DNA from: Blasia pusilla
Lineage: Eukaryota
Length of the DNA stretch: 64,000 nucleotides
Assembly (NCBI GenBank): GCA_050084515.1
Contig: CM114271.1
Location: forward strand, 9,734,001-9,798,000
Reading direction: 5' to 3'
Shown one piece after another: positions 1,071-30,305 of the stretch. Under the pieces are notes generated by a model that saw only the letters and a list, made by a program, of their open reading frames with translations, had not been told where the DNA came from and made no database searches. The translations under genes and the position numbers were made by a program. Each line of letters begins with the position of its first letter. The stretch's first letter is position 1.

Positions 1071-1553
1071 TTTTTCCGGAAATGCCTCCACCTATGTCCA
1101 CGATGAATCGCTTGATCAGTCGCCTTGCTGATGTCGAGATGAGTCGCCTTGATGGGTAGCTCGAATCGTCTCGCGATCATTCAGTCGAACCGTCTCGCTC
1201 TCGTTCGGTCGAACCGTCTCGCTCTCGTTCCCTCGTATCGACTCGCGATGACTCGCCGTGTGAAACGCCCCTTGGTATCTGATCAGCTGCTGCGCGGGAG
1301 AGAGAGGAATGGAGATCGCGAAATGAGAAACCGGAAATGAGCGATTTAGGCCCTATTTATACTTTTCTAGCCGTTGGGCTGACTGTTGGGTCCCGTCGTC
1401 CTTTTGACGGCGACGTGCCGGAGGTTACGGAAGTCCGGACGTGAAAAATGGCAACCCGTCGGAGTCCGACAGTTTGCGCGCCTCCGCCGTCCTGGGTACG
1501 TCGCCACGTGCGGAAGAAACCCGTTGGAGACCGATGGGTTGAGCACCTCTGCC
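1..1553 (-). mobile_element. MULE-like element copy 0 (fragment: 5' part of gene B plus promoter), inverted relative to copy 1
   Basis: Reverse complement of the 5832-7290 / 60160-61690 segment; breaks at ~1553 (gagcacctctgcc|aatacatcc) into transposase 3' sequence. Confidence 0.9.
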
Positions 1554-7290: not shown

Positions 7291-8262
7291 TAAATGTCTA
7301 AGTGTAAATAAGAAACACTTAGACATTACATATAGTCGAAGACTTTTTTGGCGCCGCTGCCGGGGAAATTTCGACCACCCCAAGGAGAGACGCCACTGAC
7401 TGCTTGATGAGCCGCTTCAAGACCTGATTCGGCGGCGCCAAAAAAGTCTTCGACTATATGTAATGTCTAAGTGTTTCTTATTTACAGTCAATTGTAGAGT
7501 TCGATCCCCAAGAGGATCATTGTTGGATGAAAAGAGAGTATAAAGTGATTATTATGTTGTAAAAGTAGTGTGGTTGATTATGTAATTCAAATGTAGTATT
7601 CGAGTTACATCTTCCGATCCTTTTTAGTACCTATGTTTTCTTCTTCAATTCTCTCGAGTGGAATTTAAAGTACGCTCAGGAAATTTGTTCTCTCGACATC
7701 TTGGAACTTCACAGAGACCTCAAGAATAAAGTTGGCTTCTCCTACTTTCGGAACTTAATCCGTCTGGGCAGGTTACTTTCTATCAAACAGATTTCATACA
7801 ACTCTATGTTGATTATTCCATTGATGAGAAAGGTTCGCCTGATTCATTCTTCACTCGGCAGATCCAAAAAGAATATTCAGACATAAGCCTCGCACATCAG
7901 AATGAATGAATAAGTGCTTTACTACTCCATCAAGAATTGGAAGACTTCAAAGTATATACAAGCTCGAGAGGGTACAACTTTCTTGCTCGGACCATTCCTA
8001 CAGCATAAGGACTTCATGAGCGAATGATCATGATAGCTTCTGTCTTGTTTCTTAAATATTCTCGAGAGTAGGAGCGTTTCTATGATCCGAAGCGTTCTTG
8101 ATGAAGTTGGTGTCTCTTCAATATCTATAACTACCTAGATCTATGGTGTGCGTTCCTTTTCCTATGATCCCTGTGAATCCGCGGTACAAACCATAATGTA
8201 CAAGAGTCTTTGTTCAATAAAAAAATACATTTCTTCCAAAGTACAAAATTGTGGGTATCACA
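7291..8262 (-). mobile_element. Internally deleted LTR of Athila-like family A with a fold-back LTR-end/PBS junction
   Basis: Ends ...GTGGGTATCACA at 8262 (reverse complement of LTR start TGTGATACCCAC at 32188); PBS TGGCGCCGCTGCCGGGGA at 7349-7366 and an inverted partial copy at ~7432-7440. Confidence 0.9.
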
Positions 8263-9186
8263 TTGTTTTTTGCCGAAAGCAACTCGTCGGACTCGACGGG
8301 TTGCTCGACTCGACGCTTTTTCGGATGTTTTTAAGAATGCAACTCGTCGAAATCCGACGAGTTGTTCGATTGACCACAGATTTAATTAGTTTTTGGCCCA
8401 AAGCAAACCGTCGGAGTCCGACGGGTTGCTCGACTCGCCGCCTTGTCAGGATGTTTTTTTGAAGAATGCAACTCGTCAGACTGCGACGAGTTGTTTGACT
8501 GACTGCAGGTTTAGAATGTTTTTTGCCCAAAGCAACCCGTCGGAGTACGACGGGTTGCTTGCCTCGAAGCTGTTTTTGGCCAAAATCAACCTGTCAGAGT
8601 CCGACGGGTTGCATTCGGAAGTTGGTTCCCCAAATTTTGCGTCAAATTGTAGGTTTCCATTCAATTGCGCAACCTGTCAGACTCCGACGGGTTGCTATGT
8701 TCACGTTAGTATATTTAGTTGCACAACCCGTCGGAGTCCGACGGGTTGAAACCAGGCATTAGCAAATCTGAATGCAATCCGTCGGACTCCGACGGGTTGC
8801 ATCATTTAGCTCGTTGCTAGAATCCGACCTTGAGCTGTGACGACCCGTCGGAGTCCGACGGGTTGCAGGAACCCATGTAATTTCCTGACGGGTTCAGTTT
8901 GGATGTGCAAGATTGTATCGGAGGGGAATGTCACCCACCACTGGATCCAGGATTGCGATCGGGTGAGGAAGGTGCTTACGACGCACCCGGGAGAGTACAG
9001 GGGGTTCTTGTGCGATGCCCTTGTCAATCAGATGCTTGCAAAGGGTGCTCAGATTAAAAAGAAAACTTGGGCAAATAAGTTTATTTCCCAAGATGCAGCC
9101 GTAACCATCCTTTGCTGGTCGAAGATACAGGCCGCGAAGAAGAGCGCTGCACTGGAGTTGGAGCGGAGGGAGAAGGTATCTGCGTC
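8263..9186 (+). mobile_element. MULE-like element fragment: gene B intron 2 (palindrome array) and start of exon 3
   Basis: Colinear with 61950-62875; about ten palindromes at 8279-8866; IVSEGNVTHHWIQDCDRVRK coding. Confidence 0.9.
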
Positions 9187-9589
9187 GAGGTGCGGTAAGA
9201 GGAGAGGAAGAGAGGAAGAGAGGAGAGAGGAGAGAGGAAACTACCTTCAACCGAAATAGATAATTTTTTTTGAAGAGAGTTTCCGTTGGGTTTAAGAGAG
9301 GAAACTTTTTGTGTGAATATTTTTGCACTTTTTTGTTCATTTATTAAACAATCCCACAGTTTTTTTTTCCTCTTCCATATTTTGGCAACCCCTGTGAGTC
9401 CGACGAGTTGCAAATTGCACAAAATTTAGAAAATTGAAAAATCAGTGGAATCATAAGTGTGGAACCAATCACTTTTTCCATCCAAGGTCTGGAAAAAATC
9501 TATCATTTTCCCCGGGCTGAAAAGAGTTCAAGCTCAAAGTGAAGGTTGAGGAAAAATAAAAGTACAATCTAAAACCTCATTTTGCATCC

Positions 9590-12500
9590 TCAAAGTGGTT
9601 TGTTTAAAATACTTCGCACTTCTTTGAGGGATGGGGTGGTTGGTGGATTCCTACTCCTACCTCCGACTCTCTTAAAACTACCAGCAACACATAGTACATG
9701 TGCTTACAAGGGAAATACCTTTTGCCACTTGTCTCTCTTTGGACAAAGTCATCACATCAACATGTGGGAAAGCAACAAATGTGCACCACATACACCCCTG
9801 TGACACTTGAATTTACAGTGTTGATCCTGACCCAATACATCCTTCCTATTCGATTGCCACTCAAGACATCTTTCGTGGCGATGATCTCCATTTTTGCCTC
9901 CCGAGCTGATGCAATTCGCTTTGCTCTCTCCACCGTTGGCCTACACATTCTGTTTCTCTTCACCCCATTTCTAGACTCAAACAGAAATAATGGATTAAGA
10001 TCATCCACTTTCTCCGGGTACATGTTGACATCAATCTTGGGTTGAATACGAAATGCGAAGGTCTCTGTAATGCGAACATGCTCCGAACTTCCCCCGTCTA
10101 CGAGTTTGAAACCGGCACTTGTAAGATTGTCCACTTCGTCTTGAGTGCAGTTTGAGCGATGGGCCAAATCGTGGGGGTATTCCCCGGAGCTCCAATCGCA
10201 GCCGAATAAGACTTCCGAAAAGCGCAAGATTCATTTGGGCAGAAGAAGTACTTCAATTGATCCCCGGTCCTCGTGAAACGATCAAAGGTTTTGAGTCCCC
10301 AAAACCCAGGCAGAGGTCGTCCAGTCCTTGTACAGTTCTTATTTAGGAAAGTGCCGCATGCTCTCCTAATGCCATCAGATCCTGCCCTGCAAGTGGGTCC
10401 ACGTCCTGGGTTGCTCCGAGATATATGCCACCATTTTAGGTTGCAATCCACCTCCATTACTGGAATCCCATATTGTTGAACCACCCCAATGACAAGATGT
10501 TGCGAACTTCCAGCAACGGAGGGCTTTTGAAATAAAAGATTCACTGATTTTGGAGAAGTAACTCCATCACGGATTTGGGACGGGTCCGGGGTCCCCGAAT
10601 TCCTGGGCGGTGTAATTTCCTCATCCAAATCAATCACCGGATTCATTCCTCGATGTTGCCTCTTCACCTGCCTGAAGTCAAGATACTTATCTGGTCTCCA
10701 CGAGTCTCGTTCGGATCGCTCTACCACCATCCAGTATGGGGACGTCTTGAAACCCGCCAGAATATCCCCACCAATGTGTACGTCTTGCTCGAGTGGAGTT
10801 CCAGCTACGCACCGGTTGAAGGCTTCGACATACAATTTTTCATCACCAGATCTCACAGCCGCCCTGACATAGAGCTCGTAGATCGACGGCCCTTTTCCTT
10901 TTGTTATGCCTTTTGTGAGAAAGATATGGGATGCTGCAGACTGTAGCATTGCTCTTGCCTGGTCTTGTTGGCATGCCTCCACAAGTGAAATTCGTTGGCA
11001 TGCTTGTGACGACCTCCAAGAGGAATGAACACTTTCTGCTCCACTTGTGTTGGGGCAGAGGGCATTTTCATGAACGTTCAATCCCTGCAACGACGGCAAT
11101 GTTAGAAGGGAACGAAAATAACCCATGAGTCAAAAAAATAAGCGACCCGTCGGAACCAGACGGGTTGAAGGCCCGAGTCATCCCATGAACGACTCTGCGA
11201 CCCGTCGGGTCCCGACGTGTTGTAACCTTAAACCCACCTACTACAACCCGTCGGAACCTGACGGGTTGCAAGGCCGAGGCATCCCATGAACGACTCTGTG
11301 ACCCGTCGAGTCCCTCGGGACGACACCAAACATCTGGATGCAACCCGTCGGTTTCCGTCGGGTTGCACCCTTGGGCAACCCGTCGATTTCCGTCAGGTTG
11401 CACACTCGGGCAACCCGTCGGTTTCCGTCGAGTTGCACACTCGGGCAACCCGTGGGTTTCCGTCGGGTTGCACACTCGGGCAACCCGTCGCATCCGACAG
11501 CTTGCTTGGTTTCTTGGGTTTGAAATCCATATCATTCCCACGCTTCTCACCCTAAGCTACAACTTTACAAACAATTCTCAGCGTGAGCTTGACAAGACAA
11601 AATAGTGAACTCACCTGCCGCATGAAGTTTCCCCATTGTCTCATACGTACAGTCCACCAACTCAACCAAGAGCACAACTCTTTGTACTTCCCCTCAATCG
11701 CATGCTTCCTCCACCACCCATGAAGTTCTTCCTTGCACTCCATGGCCTGCTTCAAGGTTTTGCTGTCCTTGCAGCGTTGGAGTAGAGTGACATGCTCTGT
11801 CCTCTTATTCTCCTTGATGCAAGATTTGGTGTACCGGGTCACAGACTGTTGCCAATTGAAAGCATCCGACCTTTCCCTTTCAGGTTGAACCTCTCCAGCC
11901 CAGAACACTTCCCAAATAGCAATCCACCCAGGTTGTGCATTGTCCGCCATGAACCCATAAATTTCTGGAGGTGGCCTTTTGTTTTCCTTCACCACCTCCA
12001 ATAAGAGTAACCAACACATCTTCAAACTCCCAACATCTTCTGCCTTTACTTCACACACAAATATAGTTTTGAGTCCCTTCTCCACATGGTCATAAACGTG
12101 AGCACCCATTGTCAACCATCCGTTCAGCACTCTGTAGCAAATATCAAAGCTTACCCAGCTCCCGTAAAGATCTTCCCCTTCCCTCATTCGATCTATAAGA
12201 TCGAGGCCACTCGACGGACCTGTGGTTGACATTTTGAAGACATAGGCCCTGGATCCCTCGCCTCCTTGGCCCATGAACTGCCATCTCTGAATGAATGGAA
12301 ATCTGGAGTTGGCCTTGATTCTGGCGATGGCATCCATTTCGGCCGTCTTTCCATCCTGAACTCGTATCTGACGCAAAAAATTTCGGAAGCATTCAGGATC
12401 AGCGAGAAATGCGAGATTTTCCCATAGTTGTTTCTCCTCAACCGCCGTGATCTCGCCCTGTCCAGCGATTCCAAGCAATTGTTCACAAATTTGTGATGCC

Positions 12501-13087
12501 GTTGTGAGCTTGATTACCCCGGGCTTTGAACCCGGAGAGTTTCTGAAGACCTCGGCTACTTTCTTCGCCACATCCTCCTTGATGTGTCTTTGAATTGCAT
12601 CGGTCACAGGATGAGTGTGGGAGCCAACATGAACTGCCAGCCTTGTATCCGCTTAGGTTGATAACATCCGGAATCTCTTCAATAAGAACAACATTGTTAC
12701 GAGTGTGCGAAGTTGGAGTCGAAGCCGGATCTGCAGAGCTTGGAGTTGCAAACGTAGAGCTCAGAGCACTAGGAAATTCTAGACCGTCTACTTGGGAAAC
12801 AGACGAATTCAAGGGCAGGCCGTAAACTCTGTATTGACCATTTGCGCGGTGTAGGAGATTCCATACTTTACTGATCGAGGTCACTGGCTGGACCGTCTCA
12901 CCTATTATGTCTTCGTACCTTCCACCTAATATCTTTGGATACAAAGATGGTTCCAATTGAAGAAGAAATCGAAGACAGAAAATTTTCATCCTTTGCTACG
13001 AAAGACTCACGAGCTTGGGGTCGAATGATTTTGATTGAGGAAGGGCCATGGATGACTGCCACAAGTGAGCTTAACATAATTATCCAT
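9590..13087 (-). pseudogene. Mutator-like transposase with C-terminal SWIM finger; intron 11085-11614; GCM-like domain deleted
   Basis: SFDICY / FMADNA / TSGAESVH triad intact; SWIM-type CxC...CKH remnant at ~9700-9765; stop at 9590. Confidence 0.85.
11340..11506. repeat. 35-bp tandem expansion of the palindrome unit in the transposase intron
   Basis: Unit starts at 11340, 11375, 11410, 11445, 11480. Confidence 0.9.
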
Positions 13088-13228
13088 TCCAAGAAGATTC
13101 CTACGGGAGGAGATTGAGAATGAGAATGAGAATGAGAATATTTAATTTATAGTGAATAGGAAACAGATACTCCTGACAGATTTTTACTGACAAGATGAAT
13201 TCAATGGGGGAGATTGTCTGACACAATG

Positions 13229-16094
13229 ACTTGGGAGCTTCACTCCCAAGTCCATTAGGACTCCTGCGTCAGCTTCTCCTGGGCCTCGTTCGGCGAATGA
13301 AATTAGGCAGTAGGAAATCGAGGAGCGGGAAAGGGAAGCGGAGATGCACAACCAAGTGCTTCGGCGAGACGTGTTCAAGCGGCGCTAGATAAAGCGTAAC
13401 GAAGAGGCCGAGACGTCGCAGGCCTTGAAGAAAAGGATCGCCGACGAAAAGAGAGAAAAGAAGCGTCTGGACGCGTCGGTGAGGAGGGCAGAATTGGCTA
13501 AAGTGAGGCGGGAAAAAGGGATAGCCATTGACGATAGCCCAGCTCGTCCAACCGCAAGTGTTGAGATGCGGGAAATGTCCCCCACGAAGTCCGGGGACAC
13601 AATCAACATAGTGGAATCAACACCAGTTCAAATCGATGACGACGAGGTCATGAGGACCGCCAGCGTGGAGATGGTGGATATGGCGGAAGAAGCCGGAGAG
13701 CGGTCATTCTCGACTCCAAGCCCGGCGGAGGACATCGACCTCTATCGGATCGACGAGTTCCCAGTCGATTTGCCACCCCTATCTCGACAAGTTAGTCGTG
13801 GTCAAGAAACCGACTCCATTTTCGAGCGGGTAAGAGAGGTTCTGGGTTTTCTTAATTATGTGAATTGCAATTCATTGGGATTTCAGTGTAGCTTATTCCT
13901 CTTGTCCCGGATCTGACAGGTGGTAAAGCAGATGGCACTCATGGAGGGCCACAACGCCCCGAGGATTCCACTCTGCCGATTAAGGACAATGGAATACGTC
14001 TGCGAAATACAATCCGACGAGGACATCGCAAAGCTAAAACAATCGGCGGTGACAACATCCTACGTGAACAGTTTTCCTCCCTTCTATGTTCAACCTTACG
14101 ACGAGCATGGAACCCAAGCTCTGGTTACCGAGGAGGACTTGGAAAATCTCGACACATTCTGGAGGATGCGAAACCAGGACTTCAGAAGGCAAGTTGAGGG
14201 CACGGAATTCAGCTAGATGAGGAATCTGCATTTCTTCATCTGGGATGGAAATCACAGGTTCATGGCGTGGACCAAGTTTGCGGAGGAGCGCCCAAACTCA
14301 TTGGAGGCACATTTCTGCGTGAAGGCAGTGGTCCTTCACCCATACCCTCATCACATGGCGACGGTGGAGATGGAAATGCATGCCATGAACACGTAAGTAT
14401 CTTTAACACTTTCGCAACTCGTTGGACTCCGACGAGTTGCTCGATTGATGAATGGGTTAGGTTTGTTTAGGCAGAAAGCAACTCGTCGGACTCCGACGGG
14501 TTGCTAGACAACACGGTTTTCCGGATGTCTTTTTAAGATTGACACTCGTCGGACTCCGACGACTTGTTTGATGGAACATAAATTTAACTAGTTTTTGGCC
14601 CAAAGCAACCCGTCGGAGTCCGACGGGTTGCATTGGGGCAAAAACCTTCTAAACCTGCAGTCACTCGAGCAACTTGTCGGAGTCCGACGAGTTGCATTCT
14701 TAAAAAAACAACCTCACAAGGTTGCCTATCGAGCAACCCGTCGGACTCCGACGGTTTGCTTTGGGCCAACAACTAGTTAAATCTATGTTCAATCATACAA
14801 GTCGTCGGAGTCCGATGAGTTGCAATCTTAAAAAAACATCCAAAAAAGCGTGCAGTCCAGCAACCCGTCGGAGTCCGACGAGTTGCTTACCTGGCATTAG
14901 CAAATCTGAATGCAACCCGTCGGACTCCGACGGGTTGCATCATTTAGGTTGTTGCTAGAATCCAACCCTGAGCTGTGACGACCCGTCGGAGTCCGACGGG
15001 TTGCAGGAACCCATGTAATTTCCTGACGGGTTGAGTTTGGATGTGTAGGATTGTATCGGAGGGGAATGTCACCCACCATTGGATCCAGGACTGCGATCGG
15101 GTGAGGAAGGTGCTTACGACGCACCCGCGAGAGTACAAGGGGTTCTTGGGCGATGCCCTCGTCAATCAGATGCTTGCAAAGGGTGCTCAAATTAAGGAGA
15201 AAAGTTGGGCAAACAAGTTTATTTCTCAAGATGCAACCGTAACCATCCTTTGCTGGTCGAAGATACAGGCCGCGAAGAAAAGCACTACACTGGAGCTGGA
15301 GCGGAGGGAGAAGGTATCTGCGTCTGAGTGCGCCAAATTCATCCAAGCTGTTGTATCTACTGCAACGAAATACACGGCGAGCAAGATGCAGCGATACATC
15401 AGCATTCTCAACCCCGAACTTGGTCCGGAGTTCTACAAGGAGCTCAAGGCGATTATCACGCGTCAACGGAAGAGGGATGAAGATCCGCATGGTCGGATTG
15501 GGGAGAAAGTGTCGCTGGATCGCGTGCATCGTTTTGCGTTATCCGGGATTAGCGAGTTCAGGAGGATACGACTGATGAAAATCAGTCTCGAGGGCTCAGA
15601 GGCCCAGAAGAGGGCGGCACACCATCCTCCGGGTGTGTCCGATCCAGTGATCTCGCATTGGCTACGCGAATGGTCGTTCTGGGACGCGTTGCGGGTAATC
15701 GGGAAGTCCGTGCTGGACGGTCTGCAAGCGGAGCTCAGAAGATTAGAGCCCATTCCGCCGGAAGCAAACCTTGAAAGTTCTGGAGATTACGAGGTTTGGC
15801 TCAACGACATCCGGGACAAGCCAACCAAGAACCCAGGATTCAAGACCATGTTCAAGGTTTGCGTCCTCCCTCAGGCAGTAGAGGGTAGAGCTTGACGAAG
15901 AAGTAGAGGGTAACAAACGGGATCAAGCGAAGAAGAAGCGAGATCTACAGGAGCAGACGGCCGATAGTGTTCGACTAAAAGCTGCCCAACGGATGGTATT
16001 CAGGTACCTCATCCAGTGTAAGAATGCAGGTACGTGGGGAAAATTACCGGCAGCCTTGAAATTGTGGGCTTCGCCGCCGGATGCAGAGACATTC
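13229..16094 (+). pseudogene. Gene B exons 1-3 (introns 13830-13919 and 14393-15048) with ParB/Srx-like motif
   Basis: TGGGATGGAAATCACAGG (WDGNHR) at 14241-14258; GT-AG introns restore the frame (AC|G ATT GTA); in-frame stops; cut by LTR at 16095. Confidence 0.85.
14414..15004. repeat. Phased palindrome array in gene B intron 2 (63-64 bp period)
   Basis: Starts at 14414, 14478, 14541, 14605, 14669, 14733, 14797, 14860, then two more. Confidence 0.95.
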
Positions 16095-17118
16095 TGTCGT
16101 GCGCCTACTCTCCTTGAACGTTAATCTTGTTTGTTGCGGAAGCGTGCGTTCAGTAAGTCACGCTCTCAACGCTGATCTGCATCCAAACACGCACGCCGGT
16201 TAGTCGGGTCTTGGATCAATCAGCGGGATTACTTTCCGAGTTCTCGTCTCGGACTCTCTCTTCAAGCTCAACCTTCCTAGTTTCGCGGTTTCCAACACGG
16301 GCAAGTCTCAAAGACTTGGGATGAGACTTTTCAGTCGGTTCGGGGAACTGAAACGGCGTTTCGCGCCTAGCGGTTCCAACTGTCCGATGAACATCCAATG
16401 AGTTCCTCACCAAGACTCACACGAAGTGAATCTCGGTTGGAATCCAAGTGTGGCGTACAAAGTCCACTCCCTTGGATCAGGTTTGGCCGGGTTTCGCGCC
16501 AAACTCCCGTTTCATCCCGCCTCAAACGCCGTTTGGCGCCCAAAGTGAGGTTTCGTTTCCCGAGACATCTCAGAGAAGGTACTCCCCTTACTAGTACTTC
16601 TGGGGATCTCCGGGGGCCCCCTACATTTAGGGAAAGACACCCGGGCCCCTCCAATTGGCCCTCAACCCGATTGCTCTCTGAATCGTTTTCGGCCAATATG
16701 TCAGCCTGTACTTATGTGTTTGCTAAGATCTTTGGTGCGTTGGAAGCGTCTCAAGATCAGCTTTCCAACGCGCCCTTACTTGTCCCGAACGCATCTCGGA
16801 GCTCAACGTTATGGTCCTAAACACAGTCAGATTCTCCCAAACGCTAGCCGTGTTCCAAACTGGTTCTCACCTCTTTGGCAACCAACCTCCAAGACTCAAC
16901 TCATCTCAAGTCTCGGCTCGCGTTTGGTCTAGGTTTCCTGGTCGCAACCACTAACGCATGAAACGCACAACTCTGTTCCACGTTTCGTCTCTTAGACTTT
17001 TCCAAGAGACTCTTCCAAACGCCTCTCCAAAGCGCAAACCTCGCGGCGTGAGTTCCTTTGAGTTCTGATGTTTCGCTTGGCGCGTATTTGGTGTTGTTTG
17101 GTTATGAGGGTCGCGACA
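16095..17118 (-). repeat. Chromovirus 3' LTR (~1024 bp)
   Basis: TG...CA termini; reverse-complement match to solo LTR 29247-30271. Confidence 0.95.
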
Positions 17119-17808
17119 CTCACTCCTCCTTAGAAGGTTGATGTCCTCATCAACGCAAACCTTATTGATGTTAAGTTCTGGGAAGCCGACCCCTTAACAC
17201 GTAATCGCGTTCGTAGCTAACCCGCAATTCCTCTTTTTGGCTTAAGTCTTAGGTTTGTCGCTTAAAGACTTAGACTTATTAGCTTCGCTTTCGATGAGCT
17301 TAGACTAGTTCTGCCAAACGAATCTAACTATCAAAATAAGCTCACTAAGTCTGCAACCTAACACTTCACTCACTATTTGTAAACAACCGCCTGTCTACCT
17401 AGCCAACTCTTACTACTTTTGGGTCACCTGTATTCCACCTAGGCGCGTCACTAAGTTCAGTCATGAAACATGAATGAGATCACCACAAACCCCAAGACAG
17501 ACTCATCTGCCCCGCCGACGTTAGGGCGAGCCCAAATGCTAGTACTTCAACACTTGGTCCTGATCTAGATGCCTTATCTGAATACAAGCTCTCACCTCAA
17601 ATACTCATTGTTTGGTCTCCTTGACTTACATCCTAAGCATATGAAGAACTACTCATTGCATTGCACAAACCAAACTCAAAATTACAATACAAGCATCGAA
17701 TCTCCGAATCCATGTCTTCTTTATTGCAACAACTAAACCTTTCTAGTTACAACGGGTTATCGGCCCAAGCTTTCCGGTCACAAGTTATGTCCATTGCTTC
17801 ACCATGTA

Positions 17809-19087
17809 CTAACGCACGTGCTTTGCTTGCATCCATCTGAAGTCACGCAATGCTTCTTGCGCATGTTCTAGATCCGCCTCCGCAATCCAAGTCGCCTCTT
17901 TCACATGATAGCCTTTCCACTTGACCAAGTACTCGACTTGGTGGCCCTACGCCTGGAACGCAGAATAGTCTCAACCTCAAACTCTGGTTCCTCATTTCTG
18001 ATGACCGGTTGTGGTCTCAACATCCTCCTTCGCTCCGGACGCACATTGTCTTGAAGATACTTCTTCAATAATGACACATGGAAAGTCGGGTGAATCTTGA
18101 ACTCGTTTGGCGGCTCCAACGTGTACACATCCTCAAACGGCCTTGCCTTGATCACATACGGTCCAAAGATACTTGGGCGACAATTTATAAACAATTCTTT
18201 CGGAAGAGTGAGATTCTTAACACTCAACCACTGTTCCCCAACTTGAAACTCACATGGCGCCGACTTTTGTTAGCATGCTTTACGCATACCTTAGTTGAGC
18301 CTTGGCGAGACTTTTCTCTCGCTTCGCTCTTGTCGTTCCTACATTTCCACTAACAAACATTCCGCCGTTGCTTGACGAGTGTGTGTCGATGTATTGCCCT
18401 TCGAAAGAGCTAAGTCAAGAGGCCCTTGTGGTTCTCTTTGATACGCTGAAGAAACAGAGATTCTCGGTTGCGAGAATGCTTAGTCGAGTTGTAACAATAC
18501 TCAGCCATACTTAACCACTTGGCCCAATCTCTTTGGTCCGCACTCACGTAATTCCGTAAGTATTGGTTTACGACCGAGTTTTTTTTTCCGTTTGCCCATC
18601 CGTTTGAGGATGGAAGGCCGATACTAAAGCCGAGTTTGGTCGGAACCTCCTGAATAGATGTTTCAAAAGGCACCGTAAACTTCGGATCCCGATCGGACAC
18701 AATGCTCCTAGGCAATCCCGGCGCACGCCACCAACCATCCAGGAATAGTCGGAAGTCGCAGAGGGTCGCGCGACTCTCTCGTCGGCACAAACCTCCCCAA
18801 CTTGCTAAACCGATCAACTATCACAAGTATAGCGTTGTATCCTCGATTCGAAGACTCGTAATGAAATCCATGCTAATGCTTTGCAAGGGTCCCTCGGGAT
18901 TGGCAAAGGATGAAGTAAACCTTGTTTCTTCGCATAAGACACGCGGTTCGCTGGCGCAGTCACACATGTTTTCACATATTGAGCAACATCTTCCTTCATG
19001 TTGGGCGGAAGAACCTCTTAGACAAAACAAAGCAAGAGTGGATTTCTCCCCTTTGTGTCCCGCCAAAGGTCCATCATGACATTCCAC
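17809..19087 (-). pseudogene. pol: Chromovirus integrase plus chromodomain, heavily frameshifted
   Basis: HDGPLAGH, SISMDFIT, SIVSDRDPKF, GPY, IHPTFHVSLLK, EFEVETIL...EYLVKWKGY...ATW. Confidence 0.9.
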
Positions 19088-19090
19088 AAA

Positions 19091-20759
19091 CGCGGAGGCG
19101 GAATCGTCCGGACGAGCAGGGAGAGAGGGTCAGACCAGGTCCTCGGCGAAGAAAATGCCACCAGAATCCGAGGTCATAGAAACCCCGACAAGCCGTCCCA
19201 GACTAGGAGAAGCGGAAGCGAGAGGTGCCTGAGTTTTCCCAAGGAGAATACAGACCCATCATCCTTGGGAAGACACAGACAAACAACGACCGGACAAGCG
19301 TCCTCCTTCGATTCACCTCTTTCTTTGGATAAGTGCCGACTTCACTTCTCAGCGTCGACAATTGCCATCGAAAAATTGACAACGCTGGGACGGAAGCTCC
19401 AACGAAACGGGCACGCTGCCTGGACGGTGAATGGAGTGGTGGAAGAGGTTGCGGTGGATCTCTTGATTGCCGATCTGCCCTCGGGGTTGCGACTTTGGGG
19501 CGAAAATCCGCGGACGAGGTACCCGAGTGGAATCTGCCGCTCACTTATGACCAGATTGCACTTTTGTTCTCCTTGCGAGATGCCTATCCGAGTGTGAGGG
19601 CTGCTTCTTGGTGTTGGACTGGAGGGAGCGGGCGAGCTCTTCAACCTCCAGTGCGTCAAGAGGTTGCTAAAGTGGAGGACGGCACAATCATGGATCATCA
19701 AAAACGAGTACCCACTCCGATCCGCAACGAGTCAGATTCGGGTAAGGCTCAATTCCTGTACAATAATTTCAATTATCTTATAATGATGTGTAGAATGAGA
19801 GTCAGTCTGGGTTTTTTCTGTCCGTGAGCAACCCGTCGGAAGGCGACGGGTTGCTGGCTTAGAGCAGCCCATGCTCGGATGAGAGCAACCCGTCGGTTTC
19901 CGACGGGTTGCATCTTTCCCACATACAGAGGAAAAACCGCGGTGTACCTGCAACCCGTCGGAACTCGACGGATTGCAGTTGATTTTGGTTTTTGGATGCA
20001 ACCCGTCTAATAGCGACGGGTTGCTCTCAGGCGAGCATGGGCTGGTCTAGGCCAGCAACCCGTCGCCTTCCGACGGGTTGCATCTGAAAACCAAAATCAA
20101 CTTGGAAAACCCAAAAGCAACTGCAACCCGTCAGGTTCTGACGGGTGGGTCCGGGACAAAACAACCCGTCGGACTCCGACAAGTTGATCCAAAGTCAGTT
20201 ATTGAAAATCTTCTCAAGACGACTTCTTTAGTTTCTGACATTGTTTCGTGCTGATTTACAGATGGACCACTCCTACGTGTACTGCTTCGTTTGGCCCGAG
20301 CACAATTTCCAGGATCTTGTGGATCCATGCTCAGATGGATACAGCTTAGATAGTTTGTACAATTCTCCCCCGGGAATTTACATGCAAGACAGTACCCCGC
20401 TTTTGGGAGGAAGGGAAAAGTCGCCAGCCCTGATGCAAACGCTCTTCGAGCTCTGCTCAAGGCCGGGTGACTTGGTGTTCGACTTAGTGGGCCTTTCAGG
20501 GGCGAGTATCAGAGGCGCCTGGCAGAGTGGCAAGAACATTCTCTGTCTTGAGGGAAGGCAAGAACTGTTTGACCTTTGCAAGGAGGCAAAGGCAGAATAC
20601 GAAAGGCTCGTTGGGGCGTACAACTCTCCACCGAAGCCGAGAGCTCCGGTTCCAGAGCCACCCTTGGTAGTGACTCCATCGTCACTTCCAACGATTCCCA
20701 AAATCGGGAGGGCAAGGCCGAAAGTGATTTTGCAAGAGCTCTCGGACGATGACGAGTGA
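19091..20759 (+). pseudogene. Gene B 3' part: beta-class N4/N6 DNA methyltransferase-like domain; intron 19742-20261
   Basis: Start matches gene B of other copies (63965-64000; 46245-46300 reversed); VDLLIADLPSG at 19454-19486; EKSPALMQTLFELCSRPGDLVFDLVGLSGASIRGAWQSGKNILCLE in the last exon 20262-20759; GTAAGG...TTACAG phase-0 intron; several frameshifts in 19091-19741. Confidence 0.75.
19828..20187. repeat. Palindrome cluster in the methyltransferase-domain intron
   Basis: Seven copies at 19828, 19885, 19950, 19998, 20055, 20123, 20161. Confidence 0.9.
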
Positions 20760-21234
20760 GTCCAAAGAACTCAACGACCCAGCTTGACTGCAGCGTTTGG
20801 AGTAGGGACATTTTTGATAATTTGGCAAAAGATTTCATAGAATAGATCAAATGTACAGTTCCGAGCTTTTTTCGGATGATATAAAGCAGAAGATTTGTTC
20901 GATCGATGGTGGTGCTTGTAAATGTTTGGTGATCATTTTGTCTTTTCGAATGTGATCGTCTATGTACTCCACGGTCTTCTACTTTGCAACCCGTCGGATT
21001 TCTCCTGCTTGCAATTTTCACTTTATGACCACTACAACCCGTCGGATTTCTCCTCCTTGCAACTTTTCGCTTTTTGACCACTGGACCCTTTTTACCACCT
21101 CCAGGCAACCTGTCTGATTCCGACAGGTTGCCTGATCGGACCCTTTTGGATCAGGCAGTCTGGCAGGCTTCTTCCCTTGGCACCTTCCCCTCAACTGGTA
21201 AAGGCAGGCGTAGGCTTCTTTTCTTCTCTCAGAC

Positions 21235-21555
21235 GTGTTGGATTCCTTCTACCTGTGCGGTTTCCATAGTGGTATTACCGGGGACGGAGGAGATATTGAT
21301 ACTGGATGGGTGTCACATTGCAAAGCGTACAAGGTATACTGCCGAGGAAGGCGGTGGGACTCGAGACAGGTTACATGGGACCGTTATGGTGTACCTAGGG
21401 GGGGGCCAAGGCTCTCGAATTCGCCAACATTTTCGATCCCCGTCTACAACCGGCCAGAGGAGCCACTTGAATCCCAAGACATTCCTTTGGTATTGTCACC
21501 GAGGAGAGTTAGGAGTAAATTTGTAGATGACGAGGCTGAAGAAATCATAGACTAG
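21235..21555 (+). CDS. Possible third element gene or terminal exon, unknown function, acidic C-terminus VRSKFVDDEAEEIID
   Basis: Preceded by a pyrimidine tract and CAG at ~21230; C-terminus and stop position conserved in the diverged copy at 54902-55020 (-). Confidence 0.4.
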   Translation: MLDSFYLCGFHSGITGDGGDIDTGWVSHCKAYKVYCRGRRWDSRQVTWDRYGVPRGGPRLSNSPTFSIPVYNRPEEPLESQDIPLVLSPRRVRSKFVDDEAEEIID

Positions 21556-21660
21556 GTTCAATGTACATTTGTGAGGTTCCTTCGGAGGTAATAAAGGACG
21601 AGATGTTTTGAACCCATAATGGTGTTTGTAAAAGTTTTCTGGAATATGTTTTTGGACTTG

Positions 21661-22310
21661 TGGAGGTGGTGCAAGAGAAAGGCCCAGCAGCAGGTTGTCC
21701 AAGAACAAGTCAAGAAGATTGTACAAGGTGATAATGCAGCCAAGTCACTCCATTGACCTCAAGCCTAGAGGAGACAAGGGAGATGGTGTAGGCACTAGGG
21801 AGTCTCCAGGGTATCCAATGAAGGAGATAGAGTGCTTGATTGCTGTTGTAGAGGAGGGTTTGAACCAAGGGGGTGGATCTGATTGTTAGGGCCAAGAAAT
21901 GAAGAATAAGGGGCTAAGAAGAGGTCAATGGAGGCTGAGCTCAAATGCTTGGACTCTTGTGGGCTAGAAGATTCCTCATGGAAGCCTAGAGGACCTCATT
22001 TGAAGGCCATAAAGCTTGAGAATCCAAGGGAGAGATCTATGGAGTTGAGAGGATCCAAGGAGTGATTTCTGGAAGATTTGTGCAGGTGGAGCTAAGTGGA
22101 GGTGTGAACTGAGGGCGGGGCTCGAACCAGATTGAGAAGAAGCAAGCATGGGAAGAATATAGAGGTAGATCTCACCTTCAAGCATGTCCAAGAGACAGGT
22201 TGAGCCTATGCCATCAATATTGCTCAAGAGGCTTTAGTTAGGGCAGGTTCAGAAGTAGATGAGGTAGAAATTTCACGCAGTAGATGCCTTGGAGTAGATG
22301 CTTAGGGTTG
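21661..22310 (+). mobile_element. Fragment of LTR-like sequence of gypsy family C
   Basis: 21935-22307 resembles 44505-44862. Confidence 0.7.
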
Positions 22311-22369
22311 GCATCCGGGTGGTCCTCCAACAAAAATACCAAGGGCATTGCTTTTGGTTGACCAAGATG

Positions 22370-22615
22370 AGGAGATGTTAGGAAACTTAGGCTCACATGG
22401 AGAGTGATGGAAAAATGTTTGTAGTGGTCTTATGATGTCTACTTTTTTTTCGCCCCAAGGAAAAAGGAGGTTTTTTTAGGGCCAAATGTGGACCACTACA
22501 TACTCTCTTCTAAAGATTTCATGGATTTGAAAGCAAACAAAAATTTCAAATATGTCATAAAGTTTTGAAGAGAGGAGGCAGATTTGGCCTTTTTTTTTGA
22601 AGAGAGACTCTCCTC
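22370..22615 (-). repeat. Dispersed AT-rich repeat, probably a subterminal part of the MULE-like family
   Basis: Reverse complement of 52900-53145; end also resembles 54375-54400. Confidence 0.6.
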
Positions 22616-23049
22616 TTCTTTTTGGGTCTGCCGAGTGAAGAATGAATTAGGCGAACCTTTCTCATCAATGGAATAATCAACATAGAGTTGTATGGAATCT
22701 GTTTGACAGAGAGTAACCTGCCCAGATGGATTAAGTTCCGAAAGTAGGAGAAGCCAACTTTATTCTTGAGGTCTCTGTGAGGTTTCCGAGATGTCGAGAG
22801 AACAAATTGCCCTGAGCGTACTTTAAATTCCACTCGAGAGAATTGAAGAAGAAAACATAGGTACTAAAAAGGATCGGAAGATATTACTGGAATACTACAT
22901 TTGAATTACATAATCAATCACACTACTTTTACAACATAATAATCACTTTATACTCTCTTTTCATCCAACAATGATCCTCTTGGGGATCGAACTCTACAAT
23001 TGACTATAAATAAGAAACACTTAGACATTACATATAGTCGAAGACTTTT

Positions 23050-23067: not shown

Positions 23068-23572
23068 TCATATCCTTGGCTGAGAAGGGAGAGAAAGACC
23101 CACGGGGAAGCAGGGAGCGGAGAAAGAAGCTTCGCCCCTAGACGACCCCACATTCTAGTTCTTACTAATGACCATCGGCTAGCTCTAGCGACCCCCGTAA
23201 GACAATGTATGCTTGAAGATAACAATACATTTGCTGCATTGGTGCTAGAGAAGATAGACCAACTAATTAGAATGGTCAAAGAACCAGTCGCCGAATGGTG
23301 CTTCGCCCATGGACGATAGTTGTACTTGGTGAAAATCCGTTACTTCTGTTTATGGGAGGAAAACCTGGCAAGAAGCGTAGGAGCACCAGGCACCCTCCTG
23401 TAGATGTAAAAAGAATCAGTAGTTAACCTCCCTCCATGGACCCTTACCCTATCGCCACCGTGGGGGTGAACGCAAGTTGCCAAATCCCACAAGAGACTTA
23501 TGGAAGGCTCTCAGCCCTCTTCGCGAGAGCAAATGAGTTGATCGGGTTGAAGCAGCGAGAATAAAGAACGGC

Positions 23573-25427
23573 TTGAGACCGCCTGGTTCGTCTCCAAGTC
23601 TTCGTCCTCGTCCGAAGGCGAAGAGCAAGAAGAAGGAAAGGGACAAATTCTCCACTACGTCCCCTGCCAGTTCGCAGTCGGACGAAGAGTCGTCATGGGA
23701 CCCCTTTGGGGAGTCAGGGATCGAGGAGCCGATCAGAGCACCTCGGTCGGCACCTTTACCTCCTCCCTCTCGAGCATCAAGCCCGAGAGCCAGCAGGAGA
23801 GCAGTTCCCATGGCCAACACTAGAAAAACTCTGCTAAGGTACCCCACCTTTGCTGAGGGACGACGAGACGATGTGGATAACTTTGTTCTTGAATTCACCC
23901 ATGTCGCAAAAGCCAACGGGGAAGGGGCAGAGGAGGATTTGTTACAAGTCTTTCCGGGCCTGCTCAAGAAGCGAGCAAGCCAGTGGTACGAAGGTCTCGG
24001 AGCAAAAGTCACGGAAACCTGGAAAAGGGTCTTGGAATCCTTCCTATATGAGTTCCGCGACTTGGAGTTCGAGGACATGCTTCTTACAAAGCTTCGCGAC
24101 CTGAAGCGAAGAAAGAAGGAGACCCTCCGGGAATATACCCAAAGGTTCCGGAGCCTTGTGAATAAGCTGGAGCACACGACTACCTCCCAATTGGTAGATT
24201 GGTTCGTGTCCGGCTTGTCCAAAGAAATGGATCGGTATTGCCGGAGAGGCCAACAGGATTCCCTGGAGGCGGTCATAGCCTCCGCTGAGGCGTATGAAGC
24301 CTCAGAAAAGTCCCGCCAAACACGAAGACGGCGTCACCAATGGAGAGGGGCGTCGCAGACTAGTGCTTCGTCCGAAGACGAAGCGTCCTCCACAGACACG
24401 GAATCCTCTACGGAGGATTCGTCCGAGTCCTCGGACTCGGAGCAGGAGGTAAAAGCTAAAAGGAAAGGGAAGAGCAGGCATCATCGCTCCCCCAAGCACC
24501 AAGCGTCGTCCTCAACGGTCGGAAAGTCCAGTAAGAGGGACGGCAAGGAAGGCCGGCAAGTCGGCCATGGAGGAACTCAGTAAACAAATGGCTGAGTTGA
24601 AGGTACATCTGGAGGCCCAGAAGGACCCAAGGAGACGACCCGGGCTAATGAGGCCACCCATTTGGTGTAGTAGTTGTGGAACCCTGGGGCATACAGTACA
24701 AGAATGCCCTACTCTGAGGGATCTACGGTGGATCCAGGAAGAGGCCCCTATTGAAGAAGGATGGTATGAACCACAACAGTGGGAAGGGTGCTATGCCGTC
24801 CAAGCGGTGCCACCCCCAAACCTTGGGAGAAGCTGGATCACGCGGTATGTACCTCCGGAATTTGGAGAACAGAGACCCCTGAGACAGATTATGGGTGCGG
24901 CGGCCTTCACGCCACCCATCAAACAAAATTGTTGTTATAACTGCTGCGCAGCAGCCCATTGGGCCAATAATTGCCCAAACCCGAAGCGACCAGTGGGACT
25001 CAATCCCTTATGCGGGAACTGCAAGAAGGGCGGGCACACTGCCGTGGAATGCCTGGAGCCCAAAGTTCTGCGTTTGTTGGTCAGATACGTAAATACTTTA
25101 GCGGCTCAATCAGAGCCCAAAAATGATGTAAATGTACAACTGGTCCGGGTGGAAGAAGTAGTGTCCCCGAGACCAAAGCGAGTCACCATCAGTGAGGAAG
25201 ACTCGATCGAAGGGGCCAACGAGGAATCATCGGACTGGCCCAAAGAGTTCCAAGAAACTGTGTTTGCGGTCACCATGAGGTCGAAGAGTCAGACCGCGGG
25301 GATCCCAAAGGTAAAGAAGGGTGCTTCGTCTTCGCGCGAAGCTAAGGAGCCCAAGAACAAAGCTGTGAACACCTTACGTGCCGGGAAGGCCATCCTCAAA
25401 GGCGATGTGGACCCGGCCTTTGACTGA
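23573..25427 (+). pseudogene. gag: Gag with three CCHC-type zinc knuckles, frameshifted
   Basis: ETLREYTQRF capsid-like motif; CSSCGTLGHTVQEC, CYNCCAAAHWANNC, CGNCKKGGHTAVEC. Confidence 0.9.
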
Positions 25428-25556
25428 AGTCATCCGAAATACTTCCATCAGGATGTAGAGGACCAGATTCGTGCTCAAGTTTGTGAGGACCAGGAACCAG
25501 AGGGGAAACGGACCCCAGAGAAGACAAAGGCCAAACCAAGTACGACAGTCCAAGCC

Positions 25557-28500
25557 ATGGCAACATCACCGCTGGTCCTAGAAGCTTACGATTTACTGAG
25601 GGACTTGGCGTCAACCCCGGCCAACATAACCCTGCTACAGTTGCTAATGGATAACCCAATATACGGAAAAATCTTGCAGCAGTGGAAAATCAGCCGCAAA
25701 AGACCCAGGAAGTCGGCGAAGCATCTGCCAGTGGTGGATTTGTTCCGTATTGAAGTAGAAGACTTGGGAGCCCCAGAAGTGGAGGTGGAAATTGAGGGCC
25801 ATACTATTAAGAAGGTCCCCATTGATTCCGGAAGCGGAATCAATATTATGACGGAGCAAAAAACTCGGGCCCTAGGATACACGGTGTACGAGCCCACAGA
25901 CAAGTATTTGCGGTTTGCGGATCAATCCCGGAAGAGACCCCTCAGACAGCTCACGCAAATTCCGACCATGCTCGGGGGGGTGTTGTTTCTATTGGACTAC
26001 TTAGTCTTGCAGCCCTTGACCGCGACGGGCTATCCTTTGCTCATCGGAAGACCCTGGCTGTATGGCGCGAGGGTGACTACAGATTGGAAAAGGCGACGTT
26101 TCACGTTCCAGGCGCCGAATCAGGTCTCGAAGCGGCTCATCAAGCTGTCGTGGAAATCTCGACCACCCCAAGGAGAGACGCCACCGACTGACGACGGCTA
26201 TACGTCAGATCAAGACAACACCACCGCTATGGAGTCCTCGTCCCAGGTGTATTATTTAGAATGTTATGAAATAGACGAGGAGTCGGTACCCTCCAAGCCA
26301 AGGTCGACTCGAGAGGAAGAGAAGCTAGGTCATAGCACCTTCCAGTTTACATTCCTCCATGGATGAAATGACAGGCATTCCCGCACAATATGGTGAACAC
26401 CGAATTGATCTTAAAGAAGGGGCGGTCCCGGTGCGAATGCGACAATATCGACTGAATCCAAAGTACTCATTGTTAGTCAAGGACGAGATTGATCAGCGTC
26501 TCGAGGCAGGAATAATCTATCCGATGTTAAGCAGCGAGTGGGTGTCGCCCATCGTAATTGTGCCTAAAAATGGGCAAAATCCGAGTGTGCCAGGACTATC
26601 GCAATTTAAATGCTGCCACCTTAAAAGACCACCATCCTCTACCTTTCACTGACAGTATTTTGGATAAAGTGGCCGGGCACGAGCGTTATACTTTCTTGGA
26701 CGGATATTCGAGGTACAACCAGGTATCCATACAAGAAAAGGATCGTCCCCTCACAACGTTCACGACGGACTGGGGAACTTTCGCATATCGTGTAATGCCT
26801 TTTGGGTTGTGCAATGCCTCAGCTACTTTCCAACGGATGATGATCTCCATCTTCCAGGAGTATCTGCGGAAGTTCGTGGAAATCTTTTTAGACGATTTTT
26901 TAATCTTTAGCACGCAGGCCGAACATCTGGAAAAGTTAGAGTTAACACTCGCACGCTGTCGCGAAGTGCATTTGTCCCTTCATCCGGACAAATCATATAT
27001 CGCTATGAAACAAGGAATTCTGCTGGGACACCGAGTGTCGGCGCAAGGAATTGAGGTCGACAAGGCCAAGGTGGATATTATTGTCGCATTGGAACCACCT
27101 ACTAATCTCTGGGAATTGAGAGGATTCTTGGGACATGTCGGGTACTATCGACGGTTTATTAAAGATTACGCGGTAAAAGAGGGCGCTCTTACTGCATTAC
27201 TTAAGAATACCACCGAATGGGAGTGGACACCAGCGTGCCAAGTGGCATTCGACACCTTAAAAGACGCATTGCAAAAGGCTCTTTCCGGTCCCCGATTGGA
27301 CCAAACCCTTCCACGTATATGTGGACACATCCTCATTTGCCATTGGAGTAGTGCTCAGCCAATTGGATGAGCACAAACATGATTTTCCAATTTACTACGC
27401 CGGCCGACAACTATCGGCGGCAGAGCATAAATATACAACTACCGAATGAGAGGCGTTAGGCATGGTCTTCTCATGTAAAAAGTTCCGACACTATTTATTA
27501 GGGTACGAATTTGTCTTTCATGTGGATCATTTTGCACTCAGACCCTTAATGGTGAAAGCCGACCTGTCAGGACGCATTGCACGGTGGATCTTATTGCTAC
27601 AAGAATTCACATTCGATGTTGTGACCCGTGCCGGCAAGGTGCATACCAATGCCGATTTTCTTTCCCGGTTGAGGATGACAAACGCGGACCTCACCCAATC
27701 TGTCGATGATACCTTTCTCGATGAAGATCTGTTCCAGATAACAGAGGAACGGTTGAGCCAGTCTTTTTATGAGGATATTCTACGGTTTCTAATGACTCTA
27801 CGACTTCCTACCCCGATGACAGCGGAAGAACGCGCAGTTTTTTTACATCGGATAGGCCCATATGAGATCTGTCAAGGGGTCTTATTCAAATTAGGTGCTG
27901 ATGAAAAGCATCGAAGATGCTTGGAAGTCAAGAGGTTCCCAGTCATCGAGCCCTGCATATGGCTGATTCCGGTGGACACTATGCGGTAAAAAATACCGTT
28001 AAGAAAATTTTGGCCGCACGTTATTGGTGGCCGACCATGTACAAAGACGTAGGTAATTTTATTCGGAGTTGTGATGCCTGTCAAAGGGCAGGTCGACCCA
28101 CGGCGACTACGTGGTGGCCTTTGGTCCCCATCATGCCCCTAGCTCCTTTTGAAAAATGGGGCATTGACTTCGTGGGCCCTATCTCCCCGGCCACTCGCCA
28201 AACCCGGCAGAAGTATATTCTTATCGCGCGTTATGGCTGTCCGTTGGAACTAGTAAGTGACCGTGGAACGCACTTCCTGAACCAGACTATTGAGTCTCTC
28301 ACTTCCCACTTTCTCATTAAGCATCGGAAAACCACTCCCTACAACCCTAAAGCCAACGGGTTGACGGAAAAATCTAACGGCCTCATTTGCGAATATTGAA
28401 TCGCTTAACGGTAACATATTCCTATGATTGGGACACAAAAATTGCCCCGGCATTATGGGCGCATCGAGCAGATTGAGAAGGTGGCGACAAAATACACCCG

Positions 28501-29246: not shown

Positions 29247-30271
29247 TGTCGCGACCCTCATAACCAAACAACACCAAATACGCGCCAAGCGAAACATCAG
29301 AACTCAAAGGAACTCACGCCGCGAGGTTTGCGCTTTGGAGAGGCGTTTGGAAGAGTCTCTTGGAAAAGTCTAAGAGACGAAACGCGGAACAGAGTTGTGC
29401 GTTTCATGCGTTAGTGGTCGCAACCAGGAAACCTAGACCAAACGCGAGCCGAGACTTGAGATGAGTTGAGTCTTGGAGGTTGGTTGCCAAAGAGGTGAGA
29501 ACCAGTTTGGAACGCGACTAGCGTTTGGGAGAATCTGACTGTGTTTAGGACCATAACATTGAGCTCCGAGATGCGTTCGGGACAAGTAAGGGCGCGTTGG
29601 AAAGCTGATTTTGAGACGCTTCCAACGCATCAAAGATCTCAGCAAACTCATAAGTACAGGCTGAGATATTGGCCGAAAACGATTCAGAGAGCAATCGGGT
29701 TGAGGGCCAATTGGAGGGGCCCGGGTGTCTTTCCCTAAATGTAGGGGGCCCCCGGAGATCCCCAGAAGTACTAGTAAGGGGAGTACCTTCTCTGAGATGT
29801 CTCGAGAAACAAAACCCCACTTTGGGCGCCAAACGGCGTTTCAGAGGCACGGGATGAAACGGGAGTTTGGCGCGGAAACCCGAAACCCAAACCTGATCCA
29901 AGGGAGTGTACTTTGTACGCCACACTTGGATTCCAACCCGAGATTCACTTTGTGCAAGTCTTGGTGAGGAACTCATTGGATGTTCATCGGACAATTGGAA
30001 CCGCTAGGCGCGAAACGCCGTTTCAGGTTCCTGAACCGACCAGAAAGTCTGTCCCAAGTCTTTCGAGACTTGCCCGTGTTGGAAACCGCGAAACTAGGAA
30101 GGTTGAGCTTGAAGAGAGAGTCCGAGACGAGAACTTGGAAAGTAATCCCGCTGATTGATCCAAGACCCGACTAACCGGTGCGTGTTTGGATGCGATCAGC
30201 GTGAGAGCGTGACCATCAACGACGCTTCGCAACAAACAAGATTAACGTTCAAGGAGAGTAGGCGCACGACA
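29247..30271 (+). mobile_element. Chromovirus solo LTR with 5-bp target-site duplication
   Basis: AAAGC|TGTCGCGACC...CGCACGACA|AAAGC (29242-29246 and 30272-30276). Confidence 0.96.
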
Positions 30272-30305
30272 AAAGCGGGGTGTCCATCGAGATCAACCTA
30301 GCAAC

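Follow-up and report, generated by a model that had tools for sequence, protein, structure and literature searches.

At positions 19091-20759 of the window (the whole 64,000-nucleotide stretch of DNA analysed), we found the broken 3' part of a gene with a methyltransferase-like domain, consisting of a linker, the N-terminal half of the domain, an intron and a last exon (Table 1). The gene is long and starts near 15035, so that this region forms its 3' part: in a reversed copy of the same repeat unit (copy D), the frame ...AESLGQAGREGRTRSSSKKTPVESEV matches AEAESSGRAGREGQTRSSAKKMPPESEV from 19091 onwards. The product of an intact gene would have about 750 residues. Its N-terminal domain is helical, and a charged linker joins it to a C-terminal domain descended from the beta-class DNA amino-methyltransferases (PF01555 type).

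Table 1. Parts of the gene, its surroundings and the copies of the repeat unit, in window coordinates
Feature	Position	Strand	Basis or remarks
Copy C of the repeat unit	1552-9194		
Copy A of the repeat unit	9187-16095		
Transposase-like gene of copy A, fragmented	9757-12995	-	collinear repeat copies
5' part of the gene (N-terminal, mostly helical domain)	15035-16094	+	repeat copies
Inserted block of other repeats cutting the gene	16095-19094	-	3' part of a Ty3/gypsy-type pol and another repeat
Linker region	19095-19453	+	frame of copies B and D resumed (AEAESSGRAGREG..., frame 3), then probably frame 2
N-half of the methyltransferase-like domain	19454-19741	+	motif IV (VDLLIADLPSG), EVPEWN, GCFLVL, SWIIKN; frameshift-aware profile alignment
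Three -1 frameshifts	near 19494-19510, 19571-19595 and 19635-19650	+	frameshift-aware profile alignment
Intron	19742-20261	+	GT..AG, phase 0; eight 25-nt palindromic repeats between 19829 and 20186
Last exon	20262-20759	+	motif VIII-like, motif X, degenerate motif I (DLVGLSGAS), motif II (ILCLE), Pro-rich acidic tail, stop TGA
3' non-coding part of the unit	20760-22616	+	ends in a 245-bp terminal inverted repeat, 22372-22616
Copy D of the repeat unit	52868-46268	reversed	older (73-84% identity)
Copy B of the repeat unit	55031 to window end		

The last exon is open in frame 3 over 165 codons (20262-20756), followed by TGA at 20757-20759. A phmmer search of 1.84 billion representative proteins returned only three relatives of this exon at E <= 0.001: P0001, from the moss Ceratodon purpureus, where it is a hypothetical protein of 758 residues with its C-terminal domain at about residues 385-665; P0003, a 349-residue protein of the liverwort Riccia sorocarpa with the UniRef name DNA methylase N-4/N-6 domain protein; and P0002, an unnamed fragment of 147 residues. 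P0001 has two paralogues in Ceratodon (74-75% identity), and the chromosome labels in the locus tags of the three differ (M758_9G084500, M758_6G158200 and M758_1G310400); the Riccia gene is R1sor_010341. All of the Ceratodon and Riccia relatives are annotated as ordinary hypothetical proteins. A profile search added 10 further unnamed fragments from other data sets (P0008-P0017), and it also reached P0018, a bona fide bacterial-type methylase, at E 6.5e-4. When the family profile was compared with the window, the last exon scored 55.9 bits (E 4.3e-16) and was the sole ORF at E <= 0.01 among the 2485 stop-to-stop ORFs.

The preliminary description had assigned these pieces to the beta-class (PF01555-type) amino-methyltransferases, and the profile comparisons agree with this assignment. 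The METHYLTRANSFERASE-like character was recovered in the comparison of the family alignment with P0018 (hhalign 94.5%, E 8.2e-8, 66 columns covering motifs X, I and II). P0003 matched PF01555 at E 3e-5 (24.5 bits, profile positions 2-212 of 221). The scores of the relatives were 15.7, 22.0 and 24.5 bits, and no member reached the Pfam gathering score of 26.7 bits. PF01555 was matched at E <= 0.1 by 6 of the 16 members of the alignment, presumably the six whose rows include the C-half. For the exon alone, the suggested PF01555 match was obtained only in weak form (E 0.054, 13.9 bits, profile positions 165-220 of 221) and did not reach the gathering score; the exon also matched M.RsrI at E 0.037. 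Among PDB sequences, the family profile matched M1.HpyAVI/DpnA (7e-4) and CcrM (1.8e-3, 181 positions, with CcrM residues 80-256 aligned to profile positions 460-640) at E <= 0.01, both of them enzymes of the beta class. The weaker rows (E 0.2-1) included N4CMT (0.21) and a putative modification methylase, and also dynein light chains and ribosomal protein uS2.

Two AlphaFold models were of poor quality, with pLDDT values of 46 and 42 and just residues 600-640 of P0001 at 73-80, and the order of their secondary-structure elements fits the class-I methyltransferase fold. All 20 Foldseek matches listed for the first model at E <= 0.001 were beta-class methyltransferases, with TM of 0.2-0.38 and rmsd of 14-18 Å. 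For the most part, these matches seem to restate the sequence signal, and they are no independent proof of the fold.

The peptide strings quoted in the preliminary description are all present in their frames. Compared frame by frame with the family profiles, no piece of the N-half matched at E <= 10. We used a frameshift-aware dynamic-programming alignment, in which a 105-position family profile was aligned to both strands of the window at a cost of 6 bits per frame change. Nowhere in the window did the profile score higher than at 19454-19735 (profile positions 11-103, three -1 shifts), where 26.5 bits remained once the 18-bit penalty had been deducted, and this alignment stops at the splice donor. 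The runner-up scores were 20.4 on the plus strand and 21.1 on the minus strand, and reversed-sequence controls gave 20.9 and 19.1. A score of 26.5 was reached in 2 of 60 simulated 64-kb sequences; a Gumbel fit gave P 0.024 per 64-kb strand, and for the 600 nt that immediately precede the exon the expected number is about 2e-4. In this alignment the pieces of the window are collinear with the family profile, which bears out the proposed motif order IV ... X-I-II. The frameshifts could in principle be assembly errors; the read-indel table has no entry in 19450-19700 among 12 of its 100 rows.

The gap between the two halves behaves as an intron. In eight homologous gene fragments, the sequence runs after ...LPHQK into non-homologous residues starting with V (GTN), while a ninth fragment, P0008, has a 29-residue in-frame insert at this site. 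The spliced Ceratodon models go on with THNFNIKV, which corresponds to MDHSYVYC of the window. Because the fragments are interrupted there, the position of the intron is common to the window and its homologues within about 2 residues. The initial claim of a domain spread over several frames and one real intron is therefore upheld, by the three -1 shifts and by a GT..AG intron at a site that is interrupted in moss homologues. Three RNA runs labelled with the same species had no reads spliced from 19741 to 20262, and with a coverage of 19147-20388 of at most about 3.5 this result is uninformative either way.

Upstream of the linker, the gene is cut. The ORF 15035-15895 recurs at 62794-63507 (+) and 46750-47223 (-). 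The N-terminal ORF of the window is weakly similar to the N-terminus of P0001 (tblastn E 0.016; hhalign E 0.014, probability 3%), and residues 1-235 of P0001 gave no usable match in the ESM Atlas. Copies B and D are continuous past the point of 16095, and about 339 bp later they match 19095-19155: the identity is 82% between 19095-19155 and 46293-46233, and 89% between 19095-19122 and 63973-64000. The N-terminal ORF of copy D is in frame with the linker ORF 46084-46749, and a single stop interrupts the joint frame. The resulting architecture of N-terminal domain, charged linker and methyltransferase-like domain, about 730 codons in all, resembles that of P0001. As for the inserted block, 16092-17118 is a repeat that also occurs at 29247-30274 (95% identity), and PF24626 SH3_Tf2-1 was matched within the block at 17901-18269 (E 2e-8). 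Integrase-like and chromodomain-like stretches in the block were recognised by eye only. Pfam matches of ORFs nearby comprise Ty3/gypsy gag, zinc knuckle, RVT_1 and SH3_Tf2-1.

The RNA reads have loose ends at 16094/16095. No reads that skip 16095-19094 occurred in the three same-species runs, whose coverage of 19147-20388 is given above. In the same runs, 20389-20802 was covered at depths of 7-25, with the first mate mostly on the minus strand. Over the last exon, the reads were mostly 90-95% identical to the window, and at 20445 and 20546 all of them carried a letter other than that of the window (e.g., 42 of 42 at 20546 in run X19). Since the reads diverge from the window copy at these two positions, we conclude that paralogues are transcribed; transcription of the window copy was not detected in the three runs. 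The copy of the gene at 19091-20759 is dead and does nothing. A retroelement fragment of about 3 kb has taken the place of about 339 bp of coding sequence in copy A, and the domain is broken by at least three single-base frameshifts.

The catalytic motifs suggest that the loss of function goes beyond this copy. Motif IV of the window copy reads DLPSG, compared with the expected (D/N/S)PP(Y/F/W). Among 13 relatives, 12 have D[ATP]P[ESDT] and the remaining one has DALE. Their fourth position holds E in seven cases, S in three, D in two and T in one, and in no case Y, F or W; the control sequence P0018 reads DPPY. The aromatic residue of motif IV stacks on the flipped base. In motif I (D-P-F-x-G-x-G), the Phe is replaced in all seven sequences with the region (six relatives and the window copy), and the first Gly is kept only in P0003. 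On the other hand, the second Gly of motif I is conserved in the family, and no sequence that covers these sites lacks the Asp preceding motif I or the Glu of motif II. Judging from these residues, catalysis has rather likely been lost across the family, and the domain is most likely a pseudo-enzyme, because the aromatic residue of motif IV and the Phe and first Gly of motif I are gone. AdoMet may still perhaps be bound, given these three retained residues of motifs I and II and their surroundings. In intact members, the domain might thus bind nucleic acid, and perhaps AdoMet, without methylating DNA.

It is very unlikely that the copy at 19091-20759 is a working DNA methylase. The rotifer enzyme N4CMT reportedly keeps (T)SPPY and is active. 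MpDN4MT1a and MpDN4MT1b of Marchantia carry TSPPY and are active (10.1101/2021.02.12.428880). The preliminary description named the rotifer and Marchantia enzymes as known cases; DLPSG in the window copy and the missing aromatic residue in all 13 relatives are at odds with a functional N4C/N6A enzyme like those. Similar degeneration has precedents: METTL14 often has disrupted active-site motifs, and the methyltransferase domains of DIRS1 are described as probably inactive by Iyer et al. (PMC4738411).

The window is eukaryotic and repeat-dense. Self-comparison revealed a collinear unit of at least 9 kb, present in four copies within the 64 kb at 73-92% identity. Each copy adjoins a MULE-transposase-like ORF on the opposite strand, the remnant of a fragmented gene, and the best-preserved of these ORFs lies in copy C (2887-4593, minus strand, 568 codons). 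In the ESM Atlas, the clusters nearest to this ORF (P0004) were MULE transposases (score 0.95, 176 of 256 features); they carry PF10551/PF21056, and 9 of the 10 best matches agree. These features are a lead to a MULE identity, not a proof of it. Compared with Pfam, MULE families included, the putative transposase gave no match at E <= 10, and a Pfam search of 16 ORFs of the repeat unit gave nothing useful, with weak AF-4 and Mu Gp27 matches under the cut-offs. The association with a transposase is seen only in the window, as a scan of metagenome contigs for further loci produced 116 pattern matches, none of them confirmed.

MULEs have long terminal inverted repeats and varied accessory proteins (PMC12973397). 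In the window, 22616-22372 at the right end of copy A matches 52900-53144 at the left end of copy B in inverted orientation (212 of 245 identical, 87%). These two ends come from two different copies. A different repeat starts at 22616. Further inverted matches pair 21153-21267 with 54566-54681 and 21425-21653 with 54805-55031, not in simple mirror order. Joining the halves would give a full unit of about 14-15 kb; the window holds no complete copy. The non-coding parts of the unit are filled with 94 copies of one palindromic motif.

Overall, we read the locus not as a hidden host gene but as a pseudogene inside a repeated, probably MULE-like, transposon, and we consider it likely that this element is large and of the Mutator-like type, with the stretch representing what decay has left of the 3' half of its second gene. 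A resemblance to methyltransferases by mere chance, with motif joins that are an artefact of the choice of frames, is very unlikely. Each piece of the N-half is insignificant by itself and the Pfam E-value of the exon is only 0.054, but the exon matches the family profile at E 4e-16 and the family matches a bona fide methylase at E 8e-8. Moreover, the best PDB matches (7e-4 and 1.8e-3) and all Foldseek matches listed at E <= 0.001 are beta-class methyltransferases, and the frameshift-aware score tops the window and ends at a splice site. The repeat structure could also be explained by an ordinary host gene family of bryophyte-like plants, whose four copies arose by a local segmental duplication that included the transposase-like gene. 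We regard this as unlikely: the copies are nested and inverted and differ by 8-27%, which indicates several ages, and their outer ends carry the 245-bp inverted repeat. The palindromic motif recurs 94 times in the non-coding parts, RNA reads come from several diverged paralogues, and the depth over the gene in the DNA contigs of run X1 runs into the thousands, although depth is not copy number. A host origin would nevertheless agree with the annotation of the Ceratodon and Riccia proteins as ordinary hypothetical genes, with the presence of all four copies within 64 kb, with the lack of a Pfam-confirmed transposase, and with the fact that no target-site duplication, 9-11 bp long in MULEs, was seen, no copy having both ends in the window.

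Another reading accepts the dead copy and supposes that the family as a whole consists of active DNA (or RNA) amino-methyltransferases with an unorthodox catalytic loop, in which case the intact copies would modify host DNA, or the DNA of the element itself, with 6mA or 4mC. This seems to us quite unlikely, as the aromatic residue that stacks on the base is present in 0 of 13 members, none of 7 sequences has the Phe of motif I and only 1 of them has its first Gly, and every member stays under the Pfam gathering score. Disrupted motifs are also on record in METTL14 and in the probably inactive domains of DIRS1 (PMC4738411). Activity would be in line with the transcription of paralogues, with the preserved motif order and with residues found unchanged wherever a sequence covers them: the Asp of motif IV, the Pro that follows it, the Asp preceding motif I and the Glu of motif II. 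A PF01555-type 4mC enzyme is in use in liverworts (10.1101/2021.02.12.428880).

The transposon reading removes a tempting lead, in that the locus is no hidden eukaryotic 4mC or 6mA enzyme. It also brings out an apparently undescribed family, a multi-copy gene with a methyltransferase-derived pseudo-enzyme domain in bryophyte-type plants, for which no description was found in the literature searched. Within the window, this gene travels with a MULE-like transposase and dense palindromic repeats. The intact protein would then serve the element as an accessory protein. If the link with the transposon holds genome-wide, the family would be a new kind of accessory protein for plant DNA transposons, and a testable candidate for an interaction between the element and the DNA-methylation machinery of the host. 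The literature searched mentions no PF01555-type domain on a plant DNA transposon; the supplementary tables of Pfam domains borne by transposable elements in PMC12973397, outside that scope, might list PF01555.

By analogy, the intact family could be an epigenetic counter-measure encoded by the transposon, an idea that we regard as a long shot. The dead or re-purposed domain would recognise the CG-rich 25-nt palindromes in the non-coding DNA of the element, and its binding would either shield the element from host cytosine methylation and silencing or mark it. Such an action would be much like that of the VANC proteins for VANDAL MULEs (PMC5735166). On this reading, mosses, liverworts and the source organism would have retained the family over hundreds of millions of years.

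The family can be compared with several known systems. Its motifs follow one another as in the beta-class enzymes (PF01555 N6_N4_Mtase: M1.HpyAVI/DpnA, CcrM, M.MboIIA, M.RsrI), in the order IV ... X-I-II. It also has in common with them a W that follows motif IV, the hydrophobic strand GC(I/F)L(L/V), the helix of motif X, the Asp preceding motif I and the motif II Glu. Unlike these enzymes, it has a motif IV without an aromatic residue (DLPSG, DAPEG, DPPT) and a motif I without Phe and mostly without the first Gly, with scores under the Pfam cut-off, and its gene is eukaryotic, intron-bearing, multi-copy and fused to an unrelated N-terminal domain. The Marchantia proteins MpDN4MT1a/b and the rotifer protein N4CMT likewise represent a PF01555-type domain in a eukaryote, and one relative of the present family occurs in the liverwort Riccia; in contrast to the (T)SPPY reported for these proteins, the catalytic motif here is degenerate, and the family profile matches N4CMT only at E 0.21.

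In its arrangement, the gene is similar to the accessory genes of plant MULEs, such as mudrB of MuDR and the VANC anti-silencing proteins of VANDAL elements, which likewise form a second gene beside the transposase in an element with long terminal inverted repeats. Here, the methyltransferase-like gene and the transposase-like gene point away from each other. As described for the targets of VANC, a single short motif recurs densely throughout the non-coding regions (PMC5735166 and PMC12973397). The likeness is one of arrangement and implies no sequence relation. The domain here is derived from methyltransferases, and no such accessory domain is mentioned in the literature consulted. A DIRS1-type element was considered and rejected, as Pfam found no reverse transcriptase or recombinase in the 16 ORFs of the unit and the methyltransferase clade differs. 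DIRS1 retrotransposons also carry a methyltransferase-derived domain with disrupted catalytic residues, which is PCIF1-like (group 2) and lies inside the pol polyprotein of a retroelement (PMC4738411). By contrast, the domain described here is of the DpnA/CcrM/MboIIA type and is encoded by a separate gene of a DNA-transposon-like unit.

Overall, the 25-nt palindrome CAACCCGTCGG-N4-CGACGGGTTG occupied 94 sites in the window, and with both strands counted and up to three mismatches allowed, 156 occurrences were found there against an expectation of 0. Every site was located in non-coding DNA of the repeat unit (probably a Mutator-like, or MULE, transposon) or just to the left of the unit (53751-54464). 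Most differences among the palindrome variants were changes from CG to TG or CA. Since 14 of the 16 stem positions altered on both arms kept their complementarity, the sequence hints at a constraint on the arms as a hairpin or cruciform, or else at the copying of variant units. The protein encoded by the third conserved ORF of the unit (P0020) is highly charged and rich in Glu, Lys and Arg, and it had no Pfam match.

Features of the repeat unit and the neighbouring retroelement
Feature	Position	Strand	Remarks
25-nt palindrome, example sites	8724-8748, 14606-14630, 19829-20186, 62412-62436		
Third ORF conserved in the unit	6298-6933, 13389-13916, 60848-61357	+	flanked by the two palindrome arrays
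Transposase-like ORF	2887-4593	-	homologous ORFs at 9757-12995 (-) and 56118-59358 (-)
Ty3/gypsy-type retroelement	23537-27370	+	gag, zinc knuckle, RVT_1

The start of copy A (9187) falls within copy C, and window positions 1-1549 pair with 60162-61680. These partial copies of the unit, inverted and nested and with 92% identity, show an element family that repeatedly inserted into, or was rearranged with, itself. The left boundary repeat of the retroelement starts at 22616, the exact end of the unit's inverted repeat.

For 53-115 RNA reads per run, the only matching part was a stretch of about 50 nt (16588-16638), with divergence from the window on both sides and uniform consensus flanks. The stretch appears to be a short segment that also occurs in an abundant transcript from another genomic place. 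In the runs labelled air metagenome (X4 and X10-X12), 12-23% of the window's sampled words were present; these are word matches only and not evidence of habitat, and they suggest airborne material from Blasia pusilla or a close relative.

The transposase-like gene had no Pfam match even at an E-value of 10. Its closest ESM Atlas clusters were MULE/ZSWIM RNaseH-like (score 0.95), and it possibly represents a very divergent lineage of MULE transposase.
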